Source of the DNA: an uncultured Gemmatimonadota bacterium
Lineage (GTDB): Bacteria > JAAXHH01
Direction of reading: 5' to 3'
Length of the DNA stretch: 64,000 nt
NCBI GenBank assembly: GCA_951812955.1
Contig: OX638340.1
Span: 3,749,437-3,813,436, forward strand
The translations under genes were made by a program, and so were the position numbers. Position 1 is the stretch's first letter, and every line of letters begins with the position of its first letter. Below are positions 1,018 to 43,870 of this stretch, piece after piece. The notes under the pieces are model-generated. The model was not told the origin of the DNA. It searched no databases and saw only the letters and a list, made by a program, of their open reading frames with translations.

Positions 1018-1030
1018 GCCATTCCTCTTC

Positions 1031-1094
1031 GTTTCAGCCCGGAATTGTTTCAACCCGGAATCGTTTCAACCCGGAATCGTTTCAGCCCGGTATA
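1031..1094. repeat. Tandem direct repeat, about 16 bp unit x4 (gtttcaRcccggaaty), immediately upstream of the GH5 RBS and overlapping the rdgB stop
   Basis: Read directly: gtttcagcccggaatt / gtttcaacccggaatc / gtttcaacccggaatc / gtttcagcccggtata. Confidence 0.7.
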
Positions 1095-10742: not shown

Positions 10743-10775
10743 GCAGTGATCCCCGGCGCTCGCATACCTGATGAT

Positions 10776-11087
10776 ATGAGAATAGATCAGTTTCTGAAAC
10801 GGTCCCGCATCATCAAACAACGGGATGCCGCCAAGAAGGCCTGCGACCGGGGCATGATTACCATCTCCGGAAGATCCGCGAAACCCGGCCACCAGGTCGC
10901 GGCGAAGGACATCGTCGTCGTGGAGTGGCCCGACAGACGGCTGGAGTTCGAAGTGTTGGACGTCCCGGACGGGAACGTGTCGAAAGAAAAAGCACTGTCC
11001 CTGTACCACGTGCTCAGCGATGAACAATCCAGCGATGAACGACCCAGCGATGAACAATCCAGCGATGAACGTCCCAGCGATGAATGA
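10776..11087 (+). CDS. S4-domain RNA-binding protein (Hsp15/YaaA-like) with repetitive acidic/serine C-terminal tail
   Basis: MRIDQFLKRSRIIKQRDAAKKACDRGMITISG = S4 fold. C-terminus SDEQSSDERPSDEQSSDERPSDE is encoded by a 12-bp tandem DNA repeat. Confidence 0.6.
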   Translation: MRIDQFLKRSRIIKQRDAAKKACDRGMITISGRSAKPGHQVAAKDIVVVEWPDRRLEFEVLDVPDGNVSKEKALSLYHVLSDEQSSDERPSDEQSSDERPSDE

Positions 11088-11147
11088 CCTGGCGATCATT
11101 CTGCAGGGATCGAAGCACGGTGAACGCGCGCCGGGGCCCAGAGTCCG

Positions 11148-11930
11148 GTGAGCAAGCGCCCCAGGAAGACCCTCCCGGCTGATTTCGAGCTTCCCTACAG
11201 CCAGTTGGCCCAGGTATACGATCACGTGATGCGCCACGTGGACTATATCCGGTGGGCCGACTATATCCAGTCGGTATTTACACGGTTCGAGGCGACGCCG
11301 AAGGACGTACTCGAACTGGCCTGCGGGACCGGGGCCATGGCGTGTATCCTCGATGACCGAGGATACCGGATGACGGGCATAGACCGGTCGGAGAGCATGA
11401 TCGCCGTCGCGAAGCAGAAATCCGTTGATGCGAGCCGGGCCATCCGCTTCCAGGTAGGCGACATGGTCCGCATGCCAGTACCGGGATCCTTCGATGCGGT
11501 GCTATGCCTGTACGATAGCCTCAACTACGTCGTGGACGAGGCGGACATCGCCGCGATGCTGAATGGGTTGCGCCGTGTTTTGAACGCAGGCGGCCTGTTC
11601 GTATTCGACGTATGTACGGAGATCAATTCGCGCAGGTACTTCCATAACCAGGTCGACCAGGAAAGCAAAGGGGATTTCTCCTACGTCCGGCGTTGCGAGT
11701 ACGTCCCCGAGACGCGCATACAGGTCAACGAATTCCAGTTTACTTTCAACCGCGAAGGAAAGCGGTATTCCACCCGGGAACGCCACGAGCAACGGATATA
11801 TCCAGTAGCCCGGCTCGAGGAAATCTGCCAGGAGTCGGGTTACCACGTACTCGGCGCTTTCGACGGTTTCAGTTTCGAAGAAGCGTCGGAGAAATCCAAC
11901 AGGGTCCATTACGTGGTCCGTCCCGTCTAA
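11148..11930 (+). CDS. Class I SAM-dependent methyltransferase
   Basis: Motif I VLELACGTG plus DxxxxM motif; 260 aa. Confidence 0.7.
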   Translation: MSKRPRKTLPADFELPYSQLAQVYDHVMRHVDYIRWADYIQSVFTRFEATPKDVLELACGTGAMACILDDRGYRMTGIDRSESMIAVAKQKSVDASRAIRFQVGDMVRMPVPGSFDAVLCLYDSLNYVVDEADIAAMLNGLRRVLNAGGLFVFDVCTEINSRRYFHNQVDQESKGDFSYVRRCEYVPETRIQVNEFQFTFNREGKRYSTRERHEQRIYPVARLEEICQESGYHVLGAFDGFSFEEASEKSNRVHYVVRPV

Positions 11931-11944
11931 CCGAACCTTCCCAT

Positions 11945-13183
11945 ATGGCATTCGATCGCGTTGTAGGCCACGACAGACAGCGGCAGCGGCTCATGAATGC
12001 CGTAGCGCAGGACCGCCTGGCCCACGGGTACCTGTTCTGCGGACCGCCGGGCGTTGGCGCCGAAGCATTGGCCATTGAACTCGCGTGCGCGGTCAACTGC
12101 GAAAGCGGACCCGGGGAACCTTGCGGGCAGTGCCGGCACTGCCGGCGGATTCGCGCGCTTCAGCATCCCGATTTACACCTGCTGGTGCCTTCTTCATCCG
12201 CCCCGCCGCCGGACCGTCCATCCGGCCGTGGCGAGGGTTCGTCCAGCCGCGGCGACGCCCGGCAGGAACGGAGGATGGGCCTGGCCTTCCAGCTGGCGGA
12301 CGACCCCTACGCCGCTCTGCCGTTCGGTTCGAACGACATCCTTTCCGTGGACGACGTCCGGTCGCTTCGTAAAGATGCGTCCGCCAAGCCCTTCGAAGGA
12401 CGGAGGAAGGTCGCGGTTATCGTGGCCGCGGACCGGATGAACACCGCCGCTTCGAACGCGCTGCTCAAGACGCTGGAAGAGCCGCCGGGAAGCCTGATGC
12501 TCATACTGACCGCATCCCGCTCCCAGCGGCTGCCGCCGACCATCGTGTCACGCTGCCAACCCGTTTTTCTGGCGCGCCTGCGGGAAGCCGATGTAAAGGC
12601 GGCGCTTATCGAGCGGTATGACATTGATCCCGAGGAGGCCGGAGATCTCGCCCGCAGGTCTGAAGGCCGCCTTTCCGAGGCACTTACGGCGAGATCCGAG
12701 CGGGGGGCGGGGCTCAGGGAGGAAGCCTTCATCCTGCTTGAATGCATTTACGACGCAACACCGCTGCGATTGTTCGAACAGGTGGAATCGCTGGCCGCCT
12801 CGCACCGGGACGAACCGGTCATGGACAAGATCCTGGATCATCTGTTGGCGTTGTACCGCGATCTGTTTATCCTCGACACCACAGGCGGTTCCTCCACGCT
12901 CTCGTACACCGAACGCGTCGACGCCCTGCGTGCGCTGGCTTCCGGGATGGACCTCGAAGATATCGAGAACGGCATAGCCGCCATCGAAGAAGCCAGGCGG
13001 GACATCGCGCGGAACGCCCACGTGCAGCTGGCCCTCCTCGTACTTGTCCTCAGACTCAGACTGAAACGAGGATCTGAAGCCTCGCGCCAGTCGCCTTCGC
13101 ATCAGACGCCTTCGCGCCAGTCGCCTTCGCGCCGGACGCCTTCCGATGAAACACCGCCCCATGCCTTGCCCGCCGCGGATTGA
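11945..13183 (+). CDS. holB: DNA polymerase III subunit delta' with extended low-complexity C-terminal tail
   Basis: From MAFDRVVGHD: Walker-like GPPGVGAE, zinc module CxxC...CxxC, SRC-like region. Track ORF 11693 overlaps the methyltransferase and was trimmed. C-terminus SRQSPS repeats. Confidence 0.75.
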   Translation: MAFDRVVGHDRQRQRLMNAVAQDRLAHGYLFCGPPGVGAEALAIELACAVNCESGPGEPCGQCRHCRRIRALQHPDLHLLVPSSSAPPPDRPSGRGEGSSSRGDARQERRMGLAFQLADDPYAALPFGSNDILSVDDVRSLRKDASAKPFEGRRKVAVIVAADRMNTAASNALLKTLEEPPGSLMLILTASRSQRLPPTIVSRCQPVFLARLREADVKAALIERYDIDPEEAGDLARRSEGRLSEALTARSERGAGLREEAFILLECIYDATPLRLFEQVESLAASHRDEPVMDKILDHLLALYRDLFILDTTGGSSTLSYTERVDALRALASGMDLEDIENGIAAIEEARRDIARNAHVQLALLVLVLRLRLKRGSEASRQSPSHQTPSRQSPSRRTPSDETPPHALPAAD

Positions 13184-19108: not shown

Positions 19109-20755
19109 CACAAACGTATCTCATTCCTGGTATTACTTGCCGTTACCCTGATCGGCACAGTCCTTGTCTCCCCTACCATCAGGCTGTGGTTTTCTTCTCC
19201 CGAATCCATCGAAAGGCTTACGCCCGATGAAAGGAAAACGCTCTACGGCCAGTCCACGGTACCCGGTATCGACCTGGCGGGCGGATATAGGCTGACCGCC
19301 GGTCTGGATGTATCCCGTTTCACGGAAAGAGGCAGGATGAGGGCGGTGGAAAGCCTGGTCGAAAACTGGCGCTTGCGCCTCAATGCATTCGGGATTTCCG
19401 AACCGGTCATCACCGCGCGGGGAAACGACGCTTTCGATATCGTCGTTCCCGTCAGTGTGGATACCGGGCTCGCAGCCAGAATGATTCAGGAATCCGGGGC
19501 GATCACGCTGCATCTGTTCAAAGATGGCGCGGAAGTGCAGGCCTTGAGGCAGCGTGTAGACGATGCCGTTCGTGAACGGGACCGGGACGCAACATCCGGG
19601 ACTGACGCGCAGGAGCCGGCCGGAACAGGTGGATCGGCATCGGACGGACCCGGTGGGCTCAGCGCGTTGCTTGCGCGTATTACGGTGGAGGACGGAATCG
19701 GAGACATCGCGGTCAGGGAGGACAACCTGGATGCCGTAAAGGCCATGCTGGCCGATTCCACGGTACTGGCCAGCATACGGGCCTTCAACCTGGCAAATCC
19801 TCCCGCCGGCGCCTTCGCGTGGGCATCAGAACCGGTGGAACGCGGCGGCAGCGTGTACCATCCGCTCTATTTCATCAACCAGGACGTGGATCTTAACGCC
19901 CAGCCCGTCGCTTCGGCCGTAGTCAGCGACGCTTCGGTAACGGCGGACCGGGGCGCTTACGCGGTACGCCTTTTCCTGCAGGACGAGGGCAGGGAGAGTC
20001 TGGCCAACCTCTCCAGTGCCAACGCGGGAAACCGCCTGGCCATCAAGATGAATGGACAGGTGTACGTGACGCTGAGTATTCAGGGCAGAATACCCGACGG
20101 ACGGATAGAGGTTCCCGGCGGCGATACCCTTGAAAAGGCACGCGCCCTGGCGGCCATCCTGGAATCCGAAGCGCCTCCCGTGGCCGTCGCGCTCCTGGAT
20201 CAGGCGGGAGTGGATATGCCCTCACCGTACGGAGACGGGATCGTGGACAGCGCATTCGGCGCCGCCGTGATTGGCATTGGATTGCTCGGCGCCTTGTTCG
20301 TGATCCGGTACCGGGCAGCCGGCTTGCTATTCATTGCGGGGATCCCGTACTTTCTGATCATGACCGGAGCGATGCTGAGGCTGTGGAACATCGCCGGAAT
20401 CGCGCCGTACTTCACGCTCGCCGGCGTGGTTGGATTACTCGCCGCGTTGCTTGTTTTCACCAGCGTGCATATCTGGATATTCGAGTACCTTCGGGCGGAA
20501 ATCGGAACGGAGACTAAGGTCCGCCAGGACGTCATGACTACGCTCGAGAAGATCACGCCTGTCCTGGTCTGGACCCATGTCATGCTGCTGCTCGTCTCCG
20601 TGTGCCTGGTCGTGGTAGGCACCGACAGTGTCGTCAATTTCGGTCTCGTGTTGTTTTCCGGTGCGGCCGGCAGCCTGCTGACCTCGATCCTCTGGACGAA
20701 CATGCTTCTGTCCTCCCTGGTGGCGGACTGGCAGATCAGAAAGTTGAGTATATGA
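19109..20755 (+). CDS. secD: Protein translocase subunit SecD (5' end unresolved)
   Basis: Track ORF starts at ATG 19337. The N-terminal signal-anchor HKRISFLVLLAVTLIGTVLV is encoded in-frame upstream with no ATG/GTG/TTG. Periplasmic SecD domain and C-terminal transmembrane bundle follow. 4-bp overlap with secF. Confidence 0.75.
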   Translation, partial: HKRISFLVLLAVTLIGTVLVSPTIRLWFSSPESIERLTPDERKTLYGQSTVPGIDLAGGYRLTAGLDVSRFTERGRMRAVESLVENWRLRLNAFGISEPVITARGNDAFDIVVPVSVDTGLAARMIQESGAITLHLFKDGAEVQALRQRVDDAVRERDRDATSGTDAQEPAGTGGSASDGPGGLSALLARITVEDGIGDIAVREDNLDAVKAMLADSTVLASIRAFNLANPPAGAFAWASEPVERGGSVYHPLYFINQDVDLNAQPVASAVVSDASVTADRGAYAVRLFLQDEGRESLANLSSANAGNRLAIKMNGQVYVTLSIQGRIPDGRIEVPGGDTLEKARALAAILESEAPPVAVALLDQAGVDMPSPYGDGIVDSAFGAAVIGIGLLGALFVIRYRAAGLLFIAGIPYFLIMTGAMLRLWNIAGIAPYFTLAGVVGLLAALLVFTSVHIWIFEYLRAEIGTETKVRQDVMTTLEKITPVLVWTHVMLLLVSVCLVVVGTDSVVNFGLVLFSGAAGSLLTSILWTNMLLSSLVADWQIRKLSI

Positions 20756-21603
20756 TGGAAAAGGGCCTCACCGCATTGTACGAAAAACTGATCGACCGCC
20801 CCGGGGTTGCCTACGCATTCGTCGTCATACTGGCCGTGTTGGGAATCGCAGCAACGGCTATGAAGAGGGAACACGCGGTCGACGAGGGCGTGGTGGCCTT
20901 GCTGCTGTCCGGCGACCTGCTCTACGGCCTGTTCGTGACCATGCTGATCGTGCTGGTCATCGTGGGCACCCGGATAGACGACCGGCCGGGTAAGAGCATC
21001 GCGGTGTCCCTGGGCGTATTGGCGGCGGGAAGCATCGTGCGTTTACTGCTCCCGTTTGCCCGATCGATCGACTGGTTGGGAGAATGGAACGGGGTCATGC
21101 TAGGCATCATGATTATCACCCTTTACCTGGCGTTTCGCATAGGCGCCCGATTCGCCGTGACGGCGATGGGTTGCGCGCTATACGTCATGTTCGTCACGGC
21201 GGGAATCACCTTTGGACTGTTGGATAGAATTACGGTTTCGGGCATACTGGCGCTGATGGCCGTCGGAACGCTGGCGGTGGTGATGACCTTCCTGGGCTAC
21301 AGTCAGGTCAGAAACCAGATAGAAACCGCGCGGCGTGACCCGGCCGGCCATTCCGTGCGTACCGGCATGTCGCGGGCCCTGCCCTTTCTGATCATGGCCG
21401 GCCTGGCCGTCCTGGTGGTCGCCGCTCCGCTGGCCATCGCCGCCGACGGTCCCCCGCGTGATTTCGGCCTCCTGCTGATGATCGGTGGTCCGGTAGGCGC
21501 CTGTGCGGCCCTGATGTCGGCGGTGCCTCTCGTATCCATGATGCAGAACGTACGGTTCGAGGTCGGGACGCCCCCCCGGCGCGGTGGACGCCGTCAGCGA
21601 TAA
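20752..21603 (+). CDS. secF: Protein translocase subunit SecF
   Basis: MMEKGLTALYEKLIDRP then six transmembrane segments. ATGA overlap with the secD stop. Confidence 0.8.
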   Translation: MMEKGLTALYEKLIDRPGVAYAFVVILAVLGIAATAMKREHAVDEGVVALLLSGDLLYGLFVTMLIVLVIVGTRIDDRPGKSIAVSLGVLAAGSIVRLLLPFARSIDWLGEWNGVMLGIMIITLYLAFRIGARFAVTAMGCALYVMFVTAGITFGLLDRITVSGILALMAVGTLAVVMTFLGYSQVRNQIETARRDPAGHSVRTGMSRALPFLIMAGLAVLVVAAPLAIAADGPPRDFGLLLMIGGPVGACAALMSAVPLVSMMQNVRFEVGTPPRRGGRRQR

Positions 21604-21760
21604 GCGCCTGCCCAGCAGTGGTAAGTGCCCGCCGGCAACGGTGAGTGTCCTCCGGTAGCGGTAAGCGCCCGCCGGTAGCGGTAAGCGCCCGCCGGTAGCG
21701 GTAAGCGCCCGCCGGTAGTGGCAGTCTCCTGCCGGCAACGGTAAGTGCCCACCGCGGAAC
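21601..21760. repeat. Degenerate tandem repeat array, about 20-21 bp unit x7-8 (consensus gYgcccgccggYaRcggtaa) in the secF-sulfatase intergenic region
   Basis: Read directly; three central units are identical (gcgcccgccggtagcggtaa), outer units diverge. No spacers. Confidence 0.75.
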
Positions 21761-21761
21761 C

Positions 21762-23297
21762 ATGGCGCAGGCAGCCTGGAGTACCATGGCCGATCAACCC
21801 AACATCCTCCTGATCCTGTCCGACCAGATGGTTGCCGCGCTGACCGGAACCTATGGACATCCCGTCGTCCGGACCCCTAACCTGGACAGACTGGCGGCAA
21901 CCGGCGTGCGCTACGATGCCGCCTACACCGCCTTTCCGCTCTGCGCGCCCGGCAGGGCCTGCCTGATGACGGGAAGGCATGCTTCGGAAATCGGCGCCTG
22001 GGACAACGGCGCACTGCTGTCTGCGGACGAACCTACCTTTGCCCACTACCTGGCTCGTGCGGGTTACGATACCGTGCTGTCGGGCAAGATGCATTTTATC
22101 GGCCCGGACCAACTGCACGGATTCAGAAAGCGGCTGACCACCGACATATATTCCTCCGATTTCGATTGGGTAAAGCCGGAATGGATCCGCCTGAAAGAAA
22201 CCAGAGGGACGGACTTCGAGCAGGTCATGAGCAACCGACCGGCCTATAACGCGGCGGGGTACACGGGCGACGGTGTGCGGATCGACGCCTGGCACGACGC
22301 TTTGAGTTACGACGAGGAAACCCATTTCCGCGCTATTGAATACCTGCGGGCCAGGAACTCCGGCGGGGAGGACGGCCCCTTTCTGCTCTGCGCGTCCTAT
22401 CACCATCCGCACGAACCGTTCTGGCCGCCCGATGCCTACTGGAAACAGTATGAAGGGGCGGACATCGACCTGCCCGTCTTTCCTGCCGACCTGGATGATC
22501 ACCATTCCATGATGGACCTGAACCTCAACGCCTATCACGGTACCGGGTGTTACGATCTGCGGAACGAAGAGGGCCTCTACCGGCTTCGCCGCGCCTATTA
22601 CGCCCTGGTGAGCTACATGGACGACAAGGTCGGTGGCCTGCTGGACGCGCTCGACGAAACCGGACTGGCTGAAAATACGGTGGTAGTCTTCGCCAGCGAT
22701 CATGGCGACATGCTGTGCGAGCGGGGCATGGTTCAGAAACGCTGTTTCTACGAATGGTCCTGCCGGGTGCCCCTCATCGTTCGCTTTCCGGATGGATGGA
22801 GGGCGGGTACGACCTTTCCCGATCCCGTGTCGCTGATCGATCTTCTGCCTACGTTCTGCGATCTCGCGGGCGTTGAGGACCGGCTTCCCCACGACGGCCA
22901 AAGTCTCGTGTCAGCGGCCGCGGACGACGGGGACCGCGTGGTGTTCGCCCAGGCGCACGAGGCCGTGGGCATGCCCTGCATCATGGCGAGGCAGGGTCGG
23001 TACAAGTACCATTACATACACGGTTTCGCCCCTCGGCTTTTTGATCTGGACAACGATCCGGACGAATGGCATAATCTCTCGGGCGAGCACGCCGAGGACG
23101 AACACCGCCAGGTGGAAGCGCGTCTGCTCGGCCGGATCCTCGACCGGTTCGACCCGGATGCCATTGCGGAGGAAAACCTGGACAGCCTTTACCGGCGGCG
23201 CCTGATCCGGGATACCATGTCGCGGTACGGACACACGTGGAGTCATGAGCCCGGTTTAGACCACCGGAAGGGCGCCATGAAACAGTATTTGAGCTAG
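21762..23297 (+). CDS. Formylglycine-dependent sulfatase (choline-sulfatase/arylsulfatase family)
   Basis: N-terminal PNILLILSDQ, CxPxR motif LCAPGRACLMTGRH, about 505 aa. Start 21762 or Met at 21786. Confidence 0.85.
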   Translation: MAQAAWSTMADQPNILLILSDQMVAALTGTYGHPVVRTPNLDRLAATGVRYDAAYTAFPLCAPGRACLMTGRHASEIGAWDNGALLSADEPTFAHYLARAGYDTVLSGKMHFIGPDQLHGFRKRLTTDIYSSDFDWVKPEWIRLKETRGTDFEQVMSNRPAYNAAGYTGDGVRIDAWHDALSYDEETHFRAIEYLRARNSGGEDGPFLLCASYHHPHEPFWPPDAYWKQYEGADIDLPVFPADLDDHHSMMDLNLNAYHGTGCYDLRNEEGLYRLRRAYYALVSYMDDKVGGLLDALDETGLAENTVVVFASDHGDMLCERGMVQKRCFYEWSCRVPLIVRFPDGWRAGTTFPDPVSLIDLLPTFCDLAGVEDRLPHDGQSLVSAAADDGDRVVFAQAHEAVGMPCIMARQGRYKYHYIHGFAPRLFDLDNDPDEWHNLSGEHAEDEHRQVEARLLGRILDRFDPDAIAEENLDSLYRRRLIRDTMSRYGHTWSHEPGLDHRKGAMKQYLS

Positions 23298-24386: not shown

Positions 24387-24451
24387 AAATGGCCTCAGCA
24401 GCGCACTGGCAATGGCCGCGGCAGCGCACCGAAAATGGCCGCGGCGCCCGG
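24387..24451. repeat. Three degenerate tandem copies of a ~22-bp unit (aaatggccKcRgcagcgcac)
   Basis: Read in the intergenic region upstream of the HsdR_N-like gene. Confidence 0.55.
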
Positions 24452-27954: not shown

Positions 27955-28812
27955 CTACACAACACGTTGATCAGCTCGTAATTGTCTTTTTGCAGCGATG
28001 CGTTTGCGCCTGAGCATCCCAGCCCAATACTGAATCCCGCTATCCTTAGATTCCCTTGCACACCTCCGCACTGCAGCACGAAGCACTTTATTATTCTTAA
28101 GGTTTTCGATGACTTCTAGTCGTGGGCGAACGGGTCCACGACTTAACCACTCCGCTGCGTCCCACGCCGGGTCAAGTTTGCTCTCGGCCGATATTGCTTT
28201 TCTAGCCTCTTCCTCGATTCGGTGGTTTATGTCTTTTGGGGTCCAACTGAATATGAGCGACAATAGAGCACGTATAATCTCACGATAGACATAGCCAATC
28301 ATTGGTTCGGCAGTGTTGTTACGACCCTCGATACTTTCGTACCTTTTTGCTACAAAGACTTCGGCTTTGCCATGTTCCTTAAAATAGTCAACAATATTTG
28401 TGTTGGGCTGGATGGACGTGACGCTTTCCAGATATTGGATGGTGCTGTCGAAACATCGCTCCAGTTCATTAAATGCCGTTATGTTGTGCTTTTGAACATC
28501 CGCCAACAGTAGATGTAGTTTGTGCCCACGAGAACGAACCTGATTCTCTGACAGGCCGCCGTCTATCAGAATCGCCTTTAGGCCCTTCTCGATTGCTTCG
28601 TGAGCATTCTTGGTGTCCGCCCTGATCCTTGCCTTTGAGTATGCTGTGGAGAGTAGTCCAATCTGAAGGAGTCTTTTGAAGAATTCATCTTCAGATTGTG
28701 CATCTAAGTTTGCTGCATCAGTCAGGCGACTATGGATATCGCGCGACGGTCTATCCAGTTCATCGAGGGCATACCTTAGGTCTGCCCATACGTCTTCCTT
28801 TTTTAACGACAT
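27955..28812 (-). CDS. Hypothetical protein with HEPN-like Rx4-6H motif (possible RNase toxin/Abi-like effector)
   Basis: 285 aa, alpha-helical, motif ...AIEKGLKAILIDGG...NQVRSRGHKLHLLLADV... (R-x4/6-H). Basic C-terminal tail. No obvious recombinase motifs. Confidence 0.4.
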   Translation of the reverse strand: MSLKKEDVWADLRYALDELDRPSRDIHSRLTDAANLDAQSEDEFFKRLLQIGLLSTAYSKARIRADTKNAHEAIEKGLKAILIDGGLSENQVRSRGHKLHLLLADVQKHNITAFNELERCFDSTIQYLESVTSIQPNTNIVDYFKEHGKAEVFVAKRYESIEGRNNTAEPMIGYVYREIIRALLSLIFSWTPKDINHRIEEEARKAISAESKLDPAWDAAEWLSRGPVRPRLEVIENLKNNKVLRAAVRRCARESKDSGIQYWAGMLRRKRIAAKRQLRADQRVV

Positions 28813-28985
28813 TTTAATGCCTGCCTTTCAGCACACACAGAACAGATCCACTTGTTGTCAAGAATGATCAGACTTTCTACAGTCTTCTCTTTGTCCAATT
28901 CGTGGTTTGCAATTGATTTCAGGCTGCGGCAAGGCATACCTGAACAGCCGTGAAACGCCCATTGGCTAAAATCCGAAATAACCAC
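28803..28985 (-). CDS. Small (60 aa) four-cysteine zinc-ribbon-like protein, translationally coupled to the downstream HEPN-like gene
   Basis: CSGMPC ... CSVC ... C pattern; 10-bp overlap with the start of the 27955-28812 gene; lies in the low-GC islet. Confidence 0.3.
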   Translation of the reverse strand: MVISDFSQWAFHGCSGMPCRSLKSIANHELDKEKTVESLIILDNKWICSVCAERQALKCR

Positions 28986-29104
28986 GATTCAATAGCCTGG
29001 CCTTATGCCGCACAGAATAGATAGATCCGGATTAGACCCTGGAATCTGACAATGAGTTACTAGTCAGGGCGGGATTGGTGCTATCGAAACCGCTGCCGAT
29101 CATT

Positions 29105-36771: not shown

Positions 36772-37551
36772 TCATTCCTGGATGGAGGCTGTGCCGCGCT
36801 TGAGCCAGAAGCCCCCGTCGACACGCAGGACTTCCCCGGTGATGTAGTCCGCCGCGTCGGAACACAGAAAGGTGGCCGCCTTGCCCAGGTCTTCGATCGT
36901 GCCCATCCGGCCCCAGGGCAGCCGCCTGCCGCCTTCCTCCAGTTCCTGCTCCGTCGAGTACTGTCGTTCGCCCGGCGTGTCGGTCCATCCCGGTTCGATC
37001 ACATTCACGCGGATGCGGTGCTCCAGCAGTTCCAGGGCGATGATGGCGGCCATGTGGTTCATGCCGGCCTTAGCGGACGAATAGGACAGGGAGGTGGGGA
37101 AGGGGAGGAAGGACATGACCGAGCTGATGAAGAGGATACTGCCGCCTTTTTTCGCGTCCACCATCTTCCGGGCGCCCGACTGCGCGACATGGAAGGCGCC
37201 GAAGAGGCTGACTTCGTAAGTTTTCTTCATTTCGTCCACGTCCATTGCGAGAAAAGGCTCCCGCGTGGAATAGTAGGCGTTGGCCACCACGATATCGGGT
37301 CCGCCGAGTTCCTTCGCCGTCTGATCCACCATGTCGTCCACGGCGGACCGGTCGGAGGCGTCCGCGCCGACGAGGATCGCCCGACGGCCCATGGACCTGA
37401 TTTCCTCGGCGACGGCCTCGCCGTCGTCCCGGTGGCTGAAGTAGTTGACGGTGACGTCCGCCCCGGCCCGGGCCATCTCCAGTGCGATGCCCTTGCCGAT
37501 GCCCCGGGACGAACCACTGATCAGCGCTGTCTTGCCCGTCAGGTCGATCAT
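36772..37551 (-). CDS. Short-chain dehydrogenase/reductase (SDR)
   Basis: From MIDLTGKTALISGSSRGIGKG; YSSAK catalytic motif. Track ORF has a 63-aa N-terminal extension into the repeat region, trimmed. Confidence 0.8.
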   Translation of the reverse strand: MIDLTGKTALISGSSRGIGKGIALEMARAGADVTVNYFSHRDDGEAVAEEIRSMGRRAILVGADASDRSAVDDMVDQTAKELGGPDIVVANAYYSTREPFLAMDVDEMKKTYEVSLFGAFHVAQSGARKMVDAKKGGSILFISSVMSFLPFPTSLSYSSAKAGMNHMAAIIALELLEHRIRVNVIEPGWTDTPGERQYSTEQELEEGGRRLPWGRMGTIEDLGKAATFLCSDAADYITGEVLRVDGGFWLKRGTASIQE

Positions 37552-37589
37552 GGTTCCCTCGATTCGAAATACATGGTGAACGGTACGAA

Positions 37590-37770
37590 TGTCCCGAGCG
37601 GCCGCACGATCGGGAGTGCCCGTACGACCGGGAGTGCCCGTACGACTAGGAGTACCCGCGAGATCGAGATCGGCCGCACGATCGGGAGCTGTTGAACGAT
37701 ACAGGCGTGCCCGCGCGATCAAGCGCGACAGCGCGATCAAGCGTGACAGCGCGATCGGGATCGACTACGC
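37590..37770. repeat. Composite degenerate tandem repeats (gggagtgcccgtacgac x3; agcgcgatcaagcgYgac x2-3) in the intergenic region
   Basis: Read directly between the SDR start and the isomerase stop. Confidence 0.6.
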
Positions 37771-37781
37771 CGGGAGCGGTT

Positions 37782-38543
37782 TCAAAGCTTCATGGCGGTC
37801 ATGTTGCGGTAGCTGACAGCGATACTGTCGAAGGGGTCGCCGGCGCAGGTGTCCTGTTCGACGACGTACCACTGGGACCCCGCGGTCTCGCATGCAGCGA
37901 CGATGCCGGACCAGTTCATGTTGCCCTCGCCGATCTCGGCCATCACCTGTTCCCGTCCCGACACGCCCAGGTCCTTGAAATGGATGACCGGGCACCGGTC
38001 CCGTACCCGGCCGATCCAGTGTATGGGGTCCCCACCGCCGTACTGGATCCAGTAGGTGTCGATTTCAAAGCACAGGGCGGGGTCGCTCTCCTCCACGAGG
38101 ATGGCCAGCCCGGTCCGACCGCCCACCCGCACGAGTTCCGTGTGGTGGTTGTGGTAGCTGAAGGACATGCCCGCTTCCTGCAACCCGATGGCCACGGCAG
38201 ACGCGTCCACCGCGAACCGCGAAAAACCGTCCGGATCGTCCCAGTAGGATCTCGGCATGGACCCGACGGCTATATGCTCACATCCCCAGAGGCGGTGTTC
38301 GGCGGCGACTTCATCCGGTTTCTCCTGCAGCCGTTCGAAGGGTACGTGCGTGGCGCAGACGTGCAGGCCGGCGTCCCGGATCATGGCGCCGAGTTCCGCG
38401 GGGTCGACAGGACCCAGGGCCGATAGCTGTATGTGGTCGTAGCCGATGGACTTGACTCTCTTCAGGGTGTCCGCGATATCGGCCGGCGTCTGCACGAAGT
38501 CGCGTAAAGTATAGAGTGTAACGGCGATCTTGCTGTCTGGCAT
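37782..38543 (-). CDS. Sugar phosphate isomerase/epimerase (xylose isomerase-like TIM barrel)
   Basis: AP-endonuclease-2/xylose-isomerase-like TIM layout with conserved E/D/H metal ligands (HNHHTE, EIDTYW). Start 38543 (SD AAGGAGA) or 38558. Confidence 0.65.
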   Translation of the reverse strand: MPDSKIAVTLYTLRDFVQTPADIADTLKRVKSIGYDHIQLSALGPVDPAELGAMIRDAGLHVCATHVPFERLQEKPDEVAAEHRLWGCEHIAVGSMPRSYWDDPDGFSRFAVDASAVAIGLQEAGMSFSYHNHHTELVRVGGRTGLAILVEESDPALCFEIDTYWIQYGGGDPIHWIGRVRDRCPVIHFKDLGVSGREQVMAEIGEGNMNWSGIVAACETAGSQWYVVEQDTCAGDPFDSIAVSYRNMTAMKL

Positions 38544-38554
38544 CCATCTCTCCT

Positions 38555-39997
38555 TCATTTTTCCATAGGTTCAAAAGCAGGCGAATCATCCTCCCACGCG
38601 CCGCCGACCGGACGAAGTTGCCCGAGTCCTGTAACGGGCCGTAGCCGCCCGTCACGATCCGGATCGGCGTATCGTTCGAACCAGCCTTCCAGTTCCCCGC
38701 GGAGCGATCTGCATCGGCCGGCATATCCGGCATCTTCCGCGAGGTTGGCCCGTTCGTCCGGGTCATTCTCCAGGTCGTACAGTTCGTTCGGTCCCTCGGT
38801 ATACCGGTGCACGTACTTCCACGATTCGGTCCGGATCATGCGCGTGCCGCCGTATTCGTCGAAAATCACCACGTGGTCCCGGCTCGCATCGTCCCGGCCC
38901 GTCCAGGCGTCCAGGGTGTTCCGCCCCGGCAGGTTGCGGTCCCAGGGTACGGGCAGGTCCAGGTACGACAGCAACGTGGGCATGAAGTCGTAAGCGCTGA
39001 GCATGGCCTCTTGCACGAATCCTTCGGGCAGGCGTCCTGGCTGGCTGACCAGGGCGGGTACCCGGATGGAGTTCTCGTACATGTTTAACGGGCTCGTCCC
39101 GTTTCCTTTCCCCCAGAATCCGTGGTGTCCCAGGCTGAAACCGTTGTCGCTCAAGAAGATAACCAGGGTGTTTTCGCGGATGCCGTGCCGGTCGAGCCGG
39201 TCAAGCAGGCGGCCTACGTCGAGGTCCATGGCCGTGACGGCCGCGAAGTAGCCCTTCAGGCTTTCGCGGTCGCCCATGCATTCGCGGGTCAGGCCGCCGG
39301 CCCAGGGATGGATGGGTTCCTGCGGACAGGATGCGAAGGCGCAGTCGTCGTAGGAATCGACGATGTCCTGCGGATGGCCCGTCCACGGGCTGTGCGGCGC
39401 GGTATAATGGACGCCGAGGTAGAACGGTTCTTCCTGGTTGGCGTGGCGGTCGATAAAGGCGAGGGCGTCGTCGGTAATGACATTCGTGACGTATCCCGGT
39501 TCGTTGACCGGGACGCCGTCGCGCACCATGGGGGCGTTGTTGTAGGGCCCGCCGCCGAACTGGTGGGCGAACCAGTGGGAAAACCCGTGCTGGGTCAGGG
39601 TGCTGTTGCCCAGGTGCCACTTGCCGCTGAGGCCGCATCGCCACCCATGGTCCGCGAGCACATCGGTGTACGCCGTTTCGCCCTCGAGGTATGAAGCCGC
39701 GTCCTCCCCGACGTTGCCACCCCGGATCCAGTCGTGCACGCCGTGCTGGGAGGCGATCCGGCCGGTCAGCAGCGTCGCGCGGCTGGGCGAGCAGACTGGC
39801 GTGGCCACGAAGAACCGGTCGAAGCGCACCCCGGTCTGCGCGATTCGGTCGATGTTCGGCGTGCGTATTTCGGAATTGCCGTAGCAGCCCGCCGCCCAGA
39901 CGCCCTGGTCGTCGGTAAGGATGCAGAGCACGTTCGGTCGGGACGAAACCATGGCATGTCCTGGGATCGAGTGGTTATCCTGTGCGTGATTCATCAA
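38555..39997 (-). CDS. Formylglycine-dependent arylsulfatase
   Basis: PNVLCILTDDQG, CxPxR motif PVCSPSRATLLTGR, about 465-480 aa. True start probably an internal Met (about 39994 or about 39952). Confidence 0.85.
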   Translation of the reverse strand: MMNHAQDNHSIPGHAMVSSRPNVLCILTDDQGVWAAGCYGNSEIRTPNIDRIAQTGVRFDRFFVATPVCSPSRATLLTGRIASQHGVHDWIRGGNVGEDAASYLEGETAYTDVLADHGWRCGLSGKWHLGNSTLTQHGFSHWFAHQFGGGPYNNAPMVRDGVPVNEPGYVTNVITDDALAFIDRHANQEEPFYLGVHYTAPHSPWTGHPQDIVDSYDDCAFASCPQEPIHPWAGGLTRECMGDRESLKGYFAAVTAMDLDVGRLLDRLDRHGIRENTLVIFLSDNGFSLGHHGFWGKGNGTSPLNMYENSIRVPALVSQPGRLPEGFVQEAMLSAYDFMPTLLSYLDLPVPWDRNLPGRNTLDAWTGRDDASRDHVVIFDEYGGTRMIRTESWKYVHRYTEGPNELYDLENDPDERANLAEDAGYAGRCRSLRGELEGWFERYADPDRDGRLRPVTGLGQLRPVGGAWEDDSPAFEPMEK

Positions 39998-43699: not shown

Positions 43700-43870
43700 C
43701 GCTTTCCGTACCGGCCGGGATGGCCTCACACCGCCCGGCCGGGATGGCCTCACACCGCCCGGTTCGCCCACCGCCCGGCTCGCCCTGCCCACCAGCCCGG
43801 TTCGCCCACCGCCCGGCTCGCCCTACCCACCAGCCCGGTTCGCCCACCGCCCGGCTCGCCCTGCCCGCTA
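43700..43870. repeat. Tandem repeat block (ccggccgggatggcctcacaccgc x2 then cccggttcgcccaccgcccggctcgccctRcccac x2.5) in the convergent intergenic region
   Basis: Read directly between the hisD stop and the aldolase stop. Confidence 0.7.

Follow-up and report, generated by a model that had tools for sequence, protein, structure and literature searches.

Between a SecF-like gene and a sulfatase gene, within the 64 kb window analyzed here (the whole stretch of DNA), lies a GC-rich array of short tandem repeats whose coordinates, together with those of its neighbors, are given in Table 1. The SecF-like gene follows directly on a SecD-like gene, the TGA stop of the latter overlapping the ATG of the former at 20752, and the sulfatase is followed by genes for a GFO/IDH/MocA oxidoreductase, an HSDR_N_2 protein, a PhyH dioxygenase, and a cyclase, all on the plus strand. 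The SecD-like and SecF-like genes are a divergent SecDF-like pair whose products fall far under the family cut-offs (37.5 bits against the NCBIfam cut-off of 160 in the case of the SecF-like protein), and the 'housekeeping' label given to them in the initial annotation is therefore unproven. A search of the window for tRNA and tmRNA genes found none.

Table 1. Genes and repeat features of the window
Feature	Position	Strand	Remarks
SecD-like gene	19337..20755	+	Divergent; 125 bits against a TIGR01129 cut-off of 244 bits
SecF-like gene	20752..21603	+	283 aa; C-terminus ...PPRRGGRRQR; stop TAA at 21601-21603
Tandem array	21596..21754	+	20-nt period, about 8 units
Perfectly periodic core	21652..21718	+	Three identical units; read as the youngest copies
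Non-repeated sulfatase leader	21755..21785	+	Shine-Dalgarno GGAG at 21777-21780
Sulfatase gene	21786..23297	+	503 aa from ATG 21786; choline-sulfatase-like, 433.8 bits against a TIGR03417 cut-off of 433.45 bits
Other array	1029-1090		16 nt x 3.9; four units, each with the TGA of the upstream Ham1-family gene
Other array	24387-24445		23 nt x 2.6; the ATG of the following gene is copied in the units
Other arrays	37602-37658 and 37713-37756		18 nt; between two co-oriented minus-strand genes
Other array	43711-43866		24 and 38 nt; between convergent genes

The array was called by TRF with a period of 20 nt and 7.9 copies (76 per cent matches, no indels, score 155), and a higher-order period of 60 nt was also called at 21589-21754. 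A repeat search of the array recovered six in-register copies and no inverted repeats; the copies are spaced exactly 20 nt from start to start, which is the length of the unit, and the array is thus without spacers. The unit GTAAGCGCCCGCCGGTAGCG has four matches at three or fewer mismatches, all of them in the array, against 0.02 expected from dinucleotide shuffles. Counted in the register of the TAA stop, the units run from 21601-21621 (21 nt) through 21622-21641, 21642-21661, 21662-21681, 21682-21701, 21702-21721, and 21722-21741 to 21742-21761. The array starts inside the last SecF-like codons and their TAA and stops 31 nt short of the sulfatase ATG, so that it occupies most of a stop-to-ATG spacer of 182 nt. 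Its 159 bases comprise 57 G, 53 C, 27 A, and 22 T, and the gap as a whole is 70 per cent GC, without any AT-rich stretch, against about 61 per cent for the window. Given that the 20-nt period is not divisible by three, and that the gap holds ten stop codons distributed across all three plus-strand frames, the array is non-coding. The initial annotation had described a 20-21 bp array at 21601-21760, of units arranged head-to-tail without spacers and with three identical central copies, that fills the secF-sulfatase gap; each of these statements is borne out, with the addition that the array begins within the SecF-like codons. Head-to-tail direct repeats of the 10-100 bp class, spacer-free and beyond chance, are what characterizes a VNTR, and the array is one.

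The origin of the unit is legible in the upstream gene. The repeat register extends into the SecF-like ORF, where the repeat family begins at 21584 (GTGGACGCCGTCAGCGATAAGCGCCTGCC); this segment is the ORF end and aligns with the later units, and the first unit of the array ('unit 0') is the end of the SecF-like gene itself, its last codons and stop. In relatives the terminus of this gene reads ...GGC CGC CGG CAG CGG TAA GCGCC. The core unit CCGCCGGTAGCGGTAAGCGCC and the secF terminus of one related locus, L016 (CCGCCGGCAGCGGTAAGCGCC), are 21-mers that differ by a single C-to-T change, and the pattern CCGCCGG[CT]AGCGGTAAGCGCC was found among 33 fetched loci in L016 only, where it occurs twice, the first copy being the true gene terminus. 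L016 carries a perfect repeat of 2.2 x 20 nt whose first copy is its own secF terminus. The window unit was also searched against about 20 kb of each repeat-free relative, on both strands and in all 20 cyclic registers, and the secF stop proved to be the site of its best match in 6 of 10 such relatives and tied for best in 2 more. Because the register enters the gene, the L016 terminus is nearly identical, and the best matches fall at the secF stop, the unit is copied from the four or five final codons (RRQR), the stop, and about five following bases (GCGCC). The unit is absent from the remainder of the 64 kb window and from 560 kb of related loci outside the secF-sulfatase junction, a blastn comparison of the gap with plasmids gave no match, and a two-unit pattern had no match in viral contigs.

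The comparison drew on 26 related loci, three of them obtained via exact-protein look-ups of close homologues and 23 as species representatives, and on one additional contig, L027, which turned up when metagenomes were scanned for the sulfatase leader; all compared sequences are MAGs or metagenome contigs. Exact-protein look-ups of the SecF-like (283 aa) and sulfatase (503 aa) proteins of the window itself returned no record, and the relatives were reached through homologues. The SecF-like homologues come from uncultured MAGs only, labeled, where they are labeled at all, as Gemmatimonadetes/Gemmatimonadota or 'Candidatus Latescibacterota', and to judge from the names of isolates (APA_bin, IRC1_bin, and Plut among them) the hosts may be sponges and corals.

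Adjacency of the secF-like and sulfatase genes is kept in 22 of 25 relatives, and in the same number synteny extends over the sulfatase and the four genes after it. Identity to the relatives is 75-97 per cent for SecF and 82-98 per cent for the sulfatase, which is the better conserved of the two. The array had been proposed to separate a housekeeping operon from an accessory region, and this proposal fails on the conserved adjacency and downstream synteny, on the higher conservation of the supposedly accessory sulfatase, and on the sub-threshold scores of the SecD/SecF-like pair: the array marks no core/accessory border. The 31 nt that separate it from the sulfatase ATG are identical (31/31) in L004, L005, and L027 and differ in L001, L002, and L003. 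Extra constraint on this leader was considered and rejected, as its identity is not significantly above the 92 per cent found at 4-fold degenerate sites (0.92^31 is about 0.08) and the three identical relatives are mutually non-independent.

The distance from the SecF-like stop to the sulfatase ATG varies from 40 to 202 nt across the loci, and a neighbor-joining tree of SecF plus sulfatase resolves three groups, clades A, B, and C, over which this variation is unevenly spread. The eight species of clade C (L006, L007, L010, L014, L015, L018, L021, and L022) have a repeat-free gap of 40-43 nt, and L011, which joins this clade basally, has a 74-nt duplication consisting of the last 71 nt of secF and the stop. 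An expansion is present at the junction in 14 of the 16 species of clades A and B. In clade A the expansions have periods of 20 nt (L016), 21 nt (L009), 31-32 nt (L013 and L020), and 67 nt (L024), with none in L017 and L019. In clade B the group that contains the window (with L001, L002, L003, L004, L005, and L027) has a 20-nt period throughout, and of the others L012 has a period of 71 nt and L008 periods of 44-46 and 90 nt. All expansions at the junction include the secF 3' end and stop with the exception of L008, whose last copy includes the sulfatase Shine-Dalgarno and start instead. Given their differing periods and positions in the tree, the expansions imply no fewer than seven separate duplications at this single junction. 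This recurrence exceeds what one would expect of a purely random process, and it counts against the reading favored below; the site may be mutationally hot, by virtue of its Arg/Gly-rich CGN/GGN tail, or a longer spacer may be favored.

Unit number is polymorphic among close relatives. In the window group the flanking genes are 92-93 per cent identical at their 4-fold degenerate sites, and the arrays have five units in L005, seven in L001, eight in the window and in L004, and nine in L027. The comparison of copy number between strains that the initial annotation had proposed is most telling for L004 and L027: their flanks are 99.5-99.8 per cent identical (2984/3000 and 1509/1512 positions), and their arrays differ by exactly one 20-nt unit and four substitutions. 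Across the group the first, second-to-last, and last units correspond by position as orthologues (80-100 per cent identical), and the interior varies in number, order, and identity of units, with higher-order periods of 60 and 80 nt. Conserved but decayed edges around a variable interior are the classic minisatellite signature of slippage or unequal exchange. Concerted evolution is weak, with identities of 0.61-0.75 within arrays against 0.60-0.69 between arrays. The earlier suggestion of a recombination hotspot stands only in a restricted sense, that of local slippage or unequal exchange within the array; as a breakpoint of synteny the array has no standing.

Similar arrays had been reported elsewhere in the window, and all of those listed exist as TRF calls (Table 1). 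Their units, however, are unrelated in sequence: the best cyclic identity of the other arrays to the secF-junction unit is 0.50-0.67, against a shuffled mean of 0.55-0.64, and a single family for all window arrays was rejected because this similarity is what shuffling yields. What the arrays share is the type of feature. Seven of the nine in the window are intergenic, and some incorporate gene ends, as in the copies of stop and start codons noted in Table 1 and in a 33-nt array of L013, L017, and L020 that copies the sulfatase 3' end and stop.

Array density was counted with TRF at a period of at least 10 and a score of at least 50. The nine arrays of the window correspond to 141 per Mb, and the orthologous 20 kb of clades A and B to 178-308 per Mb, against 61 per Mb in the same region of clade C, 38 per Mb in the outgroups, and 57 per Mb in 300 kb of E. 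coli, pSymB, and pHG1, a small baseline; shuffled windows gave 0-2 arrays, about 0.5 per 64 kb. The lineage of the window thus has about three-fold more tandem repeats than its sister clades, as counted over one orthologous region and with arrays that are not fully independent. The impression that this genome accumulates short intergenic tandem repeats was therefore right, and it extends to the clade. The intergenic position of the arrays is most simply read as a selection filter, in which duplications that straddle a stop or start spare one ORF and consign the extra copy to the spacer, and duplications inside a gene persist only when they preserve the reading frame. In keeping with the second part of this reading, 38 of 46 coding-located arrays have a period divisible by three, a count that rests on a crude GC3-based ORF picker, by which all genes outside the focal ones were called and which makes those calls approximate.

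We read the array, with good though not complete confidence, as a locally generated, polymorphic minisatellite derived from the SecF-like 3' terminus, which most probably lies in a read-through spacer and has no dedicated function. Its anatomy, its derivation from the gene end, the recurrent expansion of this junction, and the variation in copy number are shown by the sequences, and slippage, co-transcription, and neutrality are inferred from them. Its history would have begun with a short tandem duplication of the last four or five SecF-like codons, the stop, and a few following bases, in an ancestral sequence of about ...CGC CGG CAG CGG TAA GCGCC. The likely trigger is slippage between GC-rich microhomologies about 20 nt apart, of the kind seen in repeat-free relatives (CCGCCG ... 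CCGTCG). Because the first copy keeps an intact ORF and stop, the extra copies would be harmless and come to lie in the intercistronic spacer. Later the interior would have expanded and contracted by slipped-strand mispairing or unequal exchange, with the edge units decaying in place. The array probably lies within a polycistronic transcript that runs through secD-like, secF-like, and sulfatase genes and onward, and its only likely effect would be a spacer of 182 nt in place of one of about 42 nt, such that sulfatase translation would depend on its own Shine-Dalgarno sequence and not on coupling.

The best rival among the alternatives, which we nonetheless hold to be improbable, is a spacer tuned by copy number in the manner of a contingency locus. 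In this reading the number of units would shift the distance from the SecF-like stop to the sulfatase ribosome binding site, or the structure between them, and so adjust sulfatase translation, or release it from coupling, in a bacterium that lives with a host. Translational coupling is reported to drop sharply with stop-start distance (PMC12548453), the GGAG Shine-Dalgarno of the sulfatase is kept in all species compared, and both the strain-level polymorphism and the repeated independent expansion of one junction in two clades speak for such a role. However, the units and periods differ freely between species, arrays of this kind occupy unrelated junctions, including one between convergent genes (43711-43866) at which coupling is absent, and the clade-wide excess of arrays points to mutation pressure and not to selection specific to the locus.

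A protein-binding array, which the initial annotation had entertained, is very unlikely, whether the sites would be bound as DNA or as RNA and whether they would serve a regulator, a nucleoid protein, or an origin of the iteron type. A regular period of 20 bp, about two helical turns, would present the units on one face of the helix, and unit positions 11-12 (CC) are invariant across the 37 units of the clade. Invariant positions are, however, expected from recent common descent, and the independent expansions argue against a preserved recognition sequence, having periods of 21-74 nt and other content; the secF-terminal segment that they have in common differs among them in synonymous positions and even in which stop codon it carries (TAA, TAG, or TGA). 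Neither a Rep nor a regulator gene is adjacent, the gap is GC-rich throughout, and the unit occurs nowhere else among the sequences searched. A replication origin in particular was rejected on its neighbors (SecDF-like, sulfatase, and oxidoreductase genes), on the GC content of the gap, and on the variation of the units between strains.

The likelihood is lower again for a terminator or insulator, intrinsic or Rho-dependent, that would close the secDF-like operon, the other function that had been suggested. The position directly after a stop codon, the GC-richness, and a folding energy of -101.7 kcal/mol for a 211-nt RNA are what such an element would have, but the energy is not beyond that of shuffled sequences (z -1.45, 15 of 200 shuffles being equally stable), and the opposite-strand RNA is not significant either (z -0.80). 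No hairpin followed by a T-run was found on either strand of 21596-21785, nor was any promoter-like site, by searches modeled on consensus terminators and E. coli/sigma-70-type promoters that may not fit this phylum. The T content is low, and G is about equal to C, so that the tract is not of the C-rich, G-poor type that loads Rho (rut-like). In relatives a gap of only 40-43 nt with conserved co-orientation suggests read-through. A structured RNA was rejected on the same folding scores and on the lack of any Rfam match, both for the whole window at the gathering score and for 21450-21900 at E<=1.

Least credible of all is an assembly artefact or an inserted, dispersed mobile repeat (REP/BIME, MITE, or MIRU-like), since, while the sequences are MAGs and short-read assemblers can mis-resolve repeats, homologous arrays occur in seven independent assemblies, including the chromosome-level MAG L005 (OY762445.1) and the metagenome contig L027, the array is shorter than typical reads, the array has no inverted repeats, and no second copy of the unit was found in the 64 kb window or, away from this junction, in 560 kb of related loci. 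REP/BIME was rejected on these last two grounds and a MITE on the anatomy of the array. A CRISPR array was likewise rejected, as the start-to-start spacing equals the unit length of 20 and the flanking genes have no cas-like domains. With this, the initial annotation proves partly right in its interpretation, in that the array, its location, the excess, and the variability are upheld, and the similarity among arrays, the border, the terminator, and the binding function are not.

The locally generated minisatellite that we favor belongs to a known class. Bacterial VNTRs are intergenic tandem repeats of 10-100 bp that are used for MLVA typing, a class (with minisatellites) that Zhou, Aertsen and Michiels reportedly reviewed in 2014. 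The array resembles them in its spacer-free, non-coding direct repeats, in its homogeneous interior and decayed edges, in the strain-level polymorphism of its unit number, and in its presumed dynamics of slipped-strand mispairing or unequal exchange. It is unlike other VNTRs in that its origin can be read, the unit being the last codons and stop of the upstream gene, and in that related species have at least seven independent expansions of the secF-sulfatase junction, with differing periods. Literature searches on tandem repeats in sponge Gemmatimonadetes found nothing, and those on stop-bearing gene-end duplication as a source of bacterial intergenic repeats found no paper.

Three other systems invite comparison. 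MIRUs are intercistronic tandem repeats of co-oriented genes that touch the flanking stop and start codons (PMC12548453), and the array is like them in lying between co-oriented genes and touching the SecF-like stop. They are, however, a dispersed family of 40-100 bp in which the ORF of the unit is translationally coupled to its neighbor, whereas the unit here is of 20 nt, locally derived, and unique to its locus, with a period that is not a multiple of three and stops in all frames; membership in a MIRU-like family was rejected because the unit is found at no other locus of the 64 kb window or related loci and has no in-frame ORF. The TAACTGA heptamer forms intergenic direct repeats in Beggiatoaceae, cyanobacteria, and Bacteroidetes, for which a post-transcriptional role has been proposed (PMC4679880). 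These are likewise intergenic, with stop codons within the units, and lie just upstream of start codons, but there one heptamer recurs at more than 100 loci per genome, whereas here the unit (16-38 nt) is a different one in each array and is copied from the sequence around it. Plasmid iterons are also direct repeats of roughly two helical turns (about 17-22 bp in 3-8 copies). Unlike them, the array is chromosomal and sits in a conserved gene string without a rep gene, an AT-rich unwinding element, or DnaA boxes, and neither the sequence nor the number of its units is constant from one close strain to another.

As a member of the VNTR class the array is only mildly new, and what is new in it is the legible origin and the clade-specific excess. 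The main value of the analysis is a clean negative, in that a conspicuous GC-rich array beside a sulfatase gene emerges as a self-explaining mutational product and not as a regulatory array, a terminator, or an island border. The related loci also provide a legible series of spacer growth, from a repeat-free gap of about 42 nt, through a gene end perfectly duplicated into two copies, to an array of 8-9 units with higher-order periods. The roughly three-fold, clade-specific excess of arrays, counted over one set of orthologous genes, is a hint that lineages differ in slippage or repair. A bolder reading, and one that we regard as more doubtful than the tuned spacer at this junction, is that gene junctions in the two clades act as minisatellite nurseries, fed by the flanking termini (3' ends with their stop codon or 5' ends with their start codon), perhaps through a replication or repair defect specific to the lineage, and that the arrays are then kept as copy-number-tunable spacers that set the strength of translational coupling between neighbors in an operon. 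If true, this would amount to a contingency mechanism at the level of the operon, controlling in this case a sulfatase relevant to a host matrix of sulfated polysaccharides. In practical terms, the locus would suit MLVA-type strain typing of these uncultured symbionts.

The 20-bp array between the SecF-like gene and the sulfatase gene, whose unit copies the last codons and stop codon of the former, has a close architectural parallel in the window's 16-nt array, where the TGA stop codon of the Ham1/RdgB-family gene lying upstream (1082-1678, - strand) recurs in every unit. A gene end plus its stop codon is duplicated in both, and the 16-nt array likewise fills its gap, here that from the Ham1/RdgB-family gene to a GH5 cellulase-like gene. 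The same kind of duplication affects the end of the sulfatase gene itself in three clade-A species (related loci L013, L017 and L020), and on the start-codon side the 23-nt array is the counterpart of the focal array, its units containing copies of the region around the HSDR_N_2 start codon (ATG 24435). Within the window's own group, this start array comprises 2.7 copies of 23 nt in L001 and 2.9 copies of 26 nt in L003, and is absent in L002.

Tandem arrays at gene ends, gene starts, other gaps and coding tails
Locus	Position	Strand	Unit (nt)	Copies (match)	Feature
Window	1029-1090	-	16	4	Unit CCGGGYTGAAACGATT
Window	11015-11089		15		In-frame; C-terminal tail of S4-domain protein (10746-11087)
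Window	13082-13143		15		In-frame; C-terminal tail of DNA polymerase III delta' (11693-13183)
Window	24387-24445		23		Units AATGGCCGCGGCAGCGCACYG
Window	37602-37756	-	18		Two differing arrays
Window	43711-43866		24; 38	2.2 (100%); 3.0 (96%)	Two adjoining arrays
L011	19675-20378		72	9.8	Coding; translation includes ...NLTNLEWLYLYNNQLTG...
L013	12458-12531		33		Sulfatase 3' end and stop codon
L017	12386-12459		33		Sulfatase 3' end and stop codon
L020	12475-12567		33		Sulfatase 3' end and stop codon
L020	10955-10996		18	2.3	Sulfatase SD and ATG

Around the start of the focal sulfatase gene, the palindrome CCATGG occurs twice (at 21760-21765 and, including the AUG, at 21784-21789). The two copies base-pair, with the SD in the loop, in both the MFE and centroid folds; this pairing is not kept in L001 or L003. 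A second sulfatase paralogue (38657-39949, - strand) with 30% identity to the focal one is encoded elsewhere in the window.

Two further gaps hold arrays. The adjoining 24- and 38-nt arrays take up nearly all of the 168 nt that separate hisD (stop 43699) from the convergent HpcH/HpaI aldolase gene (stop 43868). Because their + strand is markedly C-rich and low in G, they could, in contrast to the focal array, form a Rho-loading tract after hisD. The paired 18-nt arrays lie within a gap of ~200 nt between an SDR gene (36772-37575) and a xylose-isomerase-like TIM-barrel gene (37782-38558).

Repeats within genes occur as well. Both 15-nt coding repeats recur, with differing copy numbers, in L004, L005 and L027, and the 72-nt repeat of L011, at the base of clade C, resembles leucine-rich repeats in translation and belongs to a eukaryote-like repeat protein. 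Such proteins are frequently reported from host-associated bacteria. A stretch of low GC (27955-29000; 47% vs ~61% for the window) may be foreign DNA; its 285-aa ORF (27955-28812, - strand) has no Pfam match.

The genes upstream of the focal array (19337-21603) score far under the NCBIfam equivalog cut-offs (SecD-like, 125 bits vs 244; SecF-like, 37.5 vs 160), and their close homologues come only from uncultured Gemmatimonadota-type MAGs. Rather than a canonical housekeeping secDF, they look like a lineage-specific, divergent SecDF-like pair, with the sulfatase gene directly downstream of it in 22 of 25 relatives.
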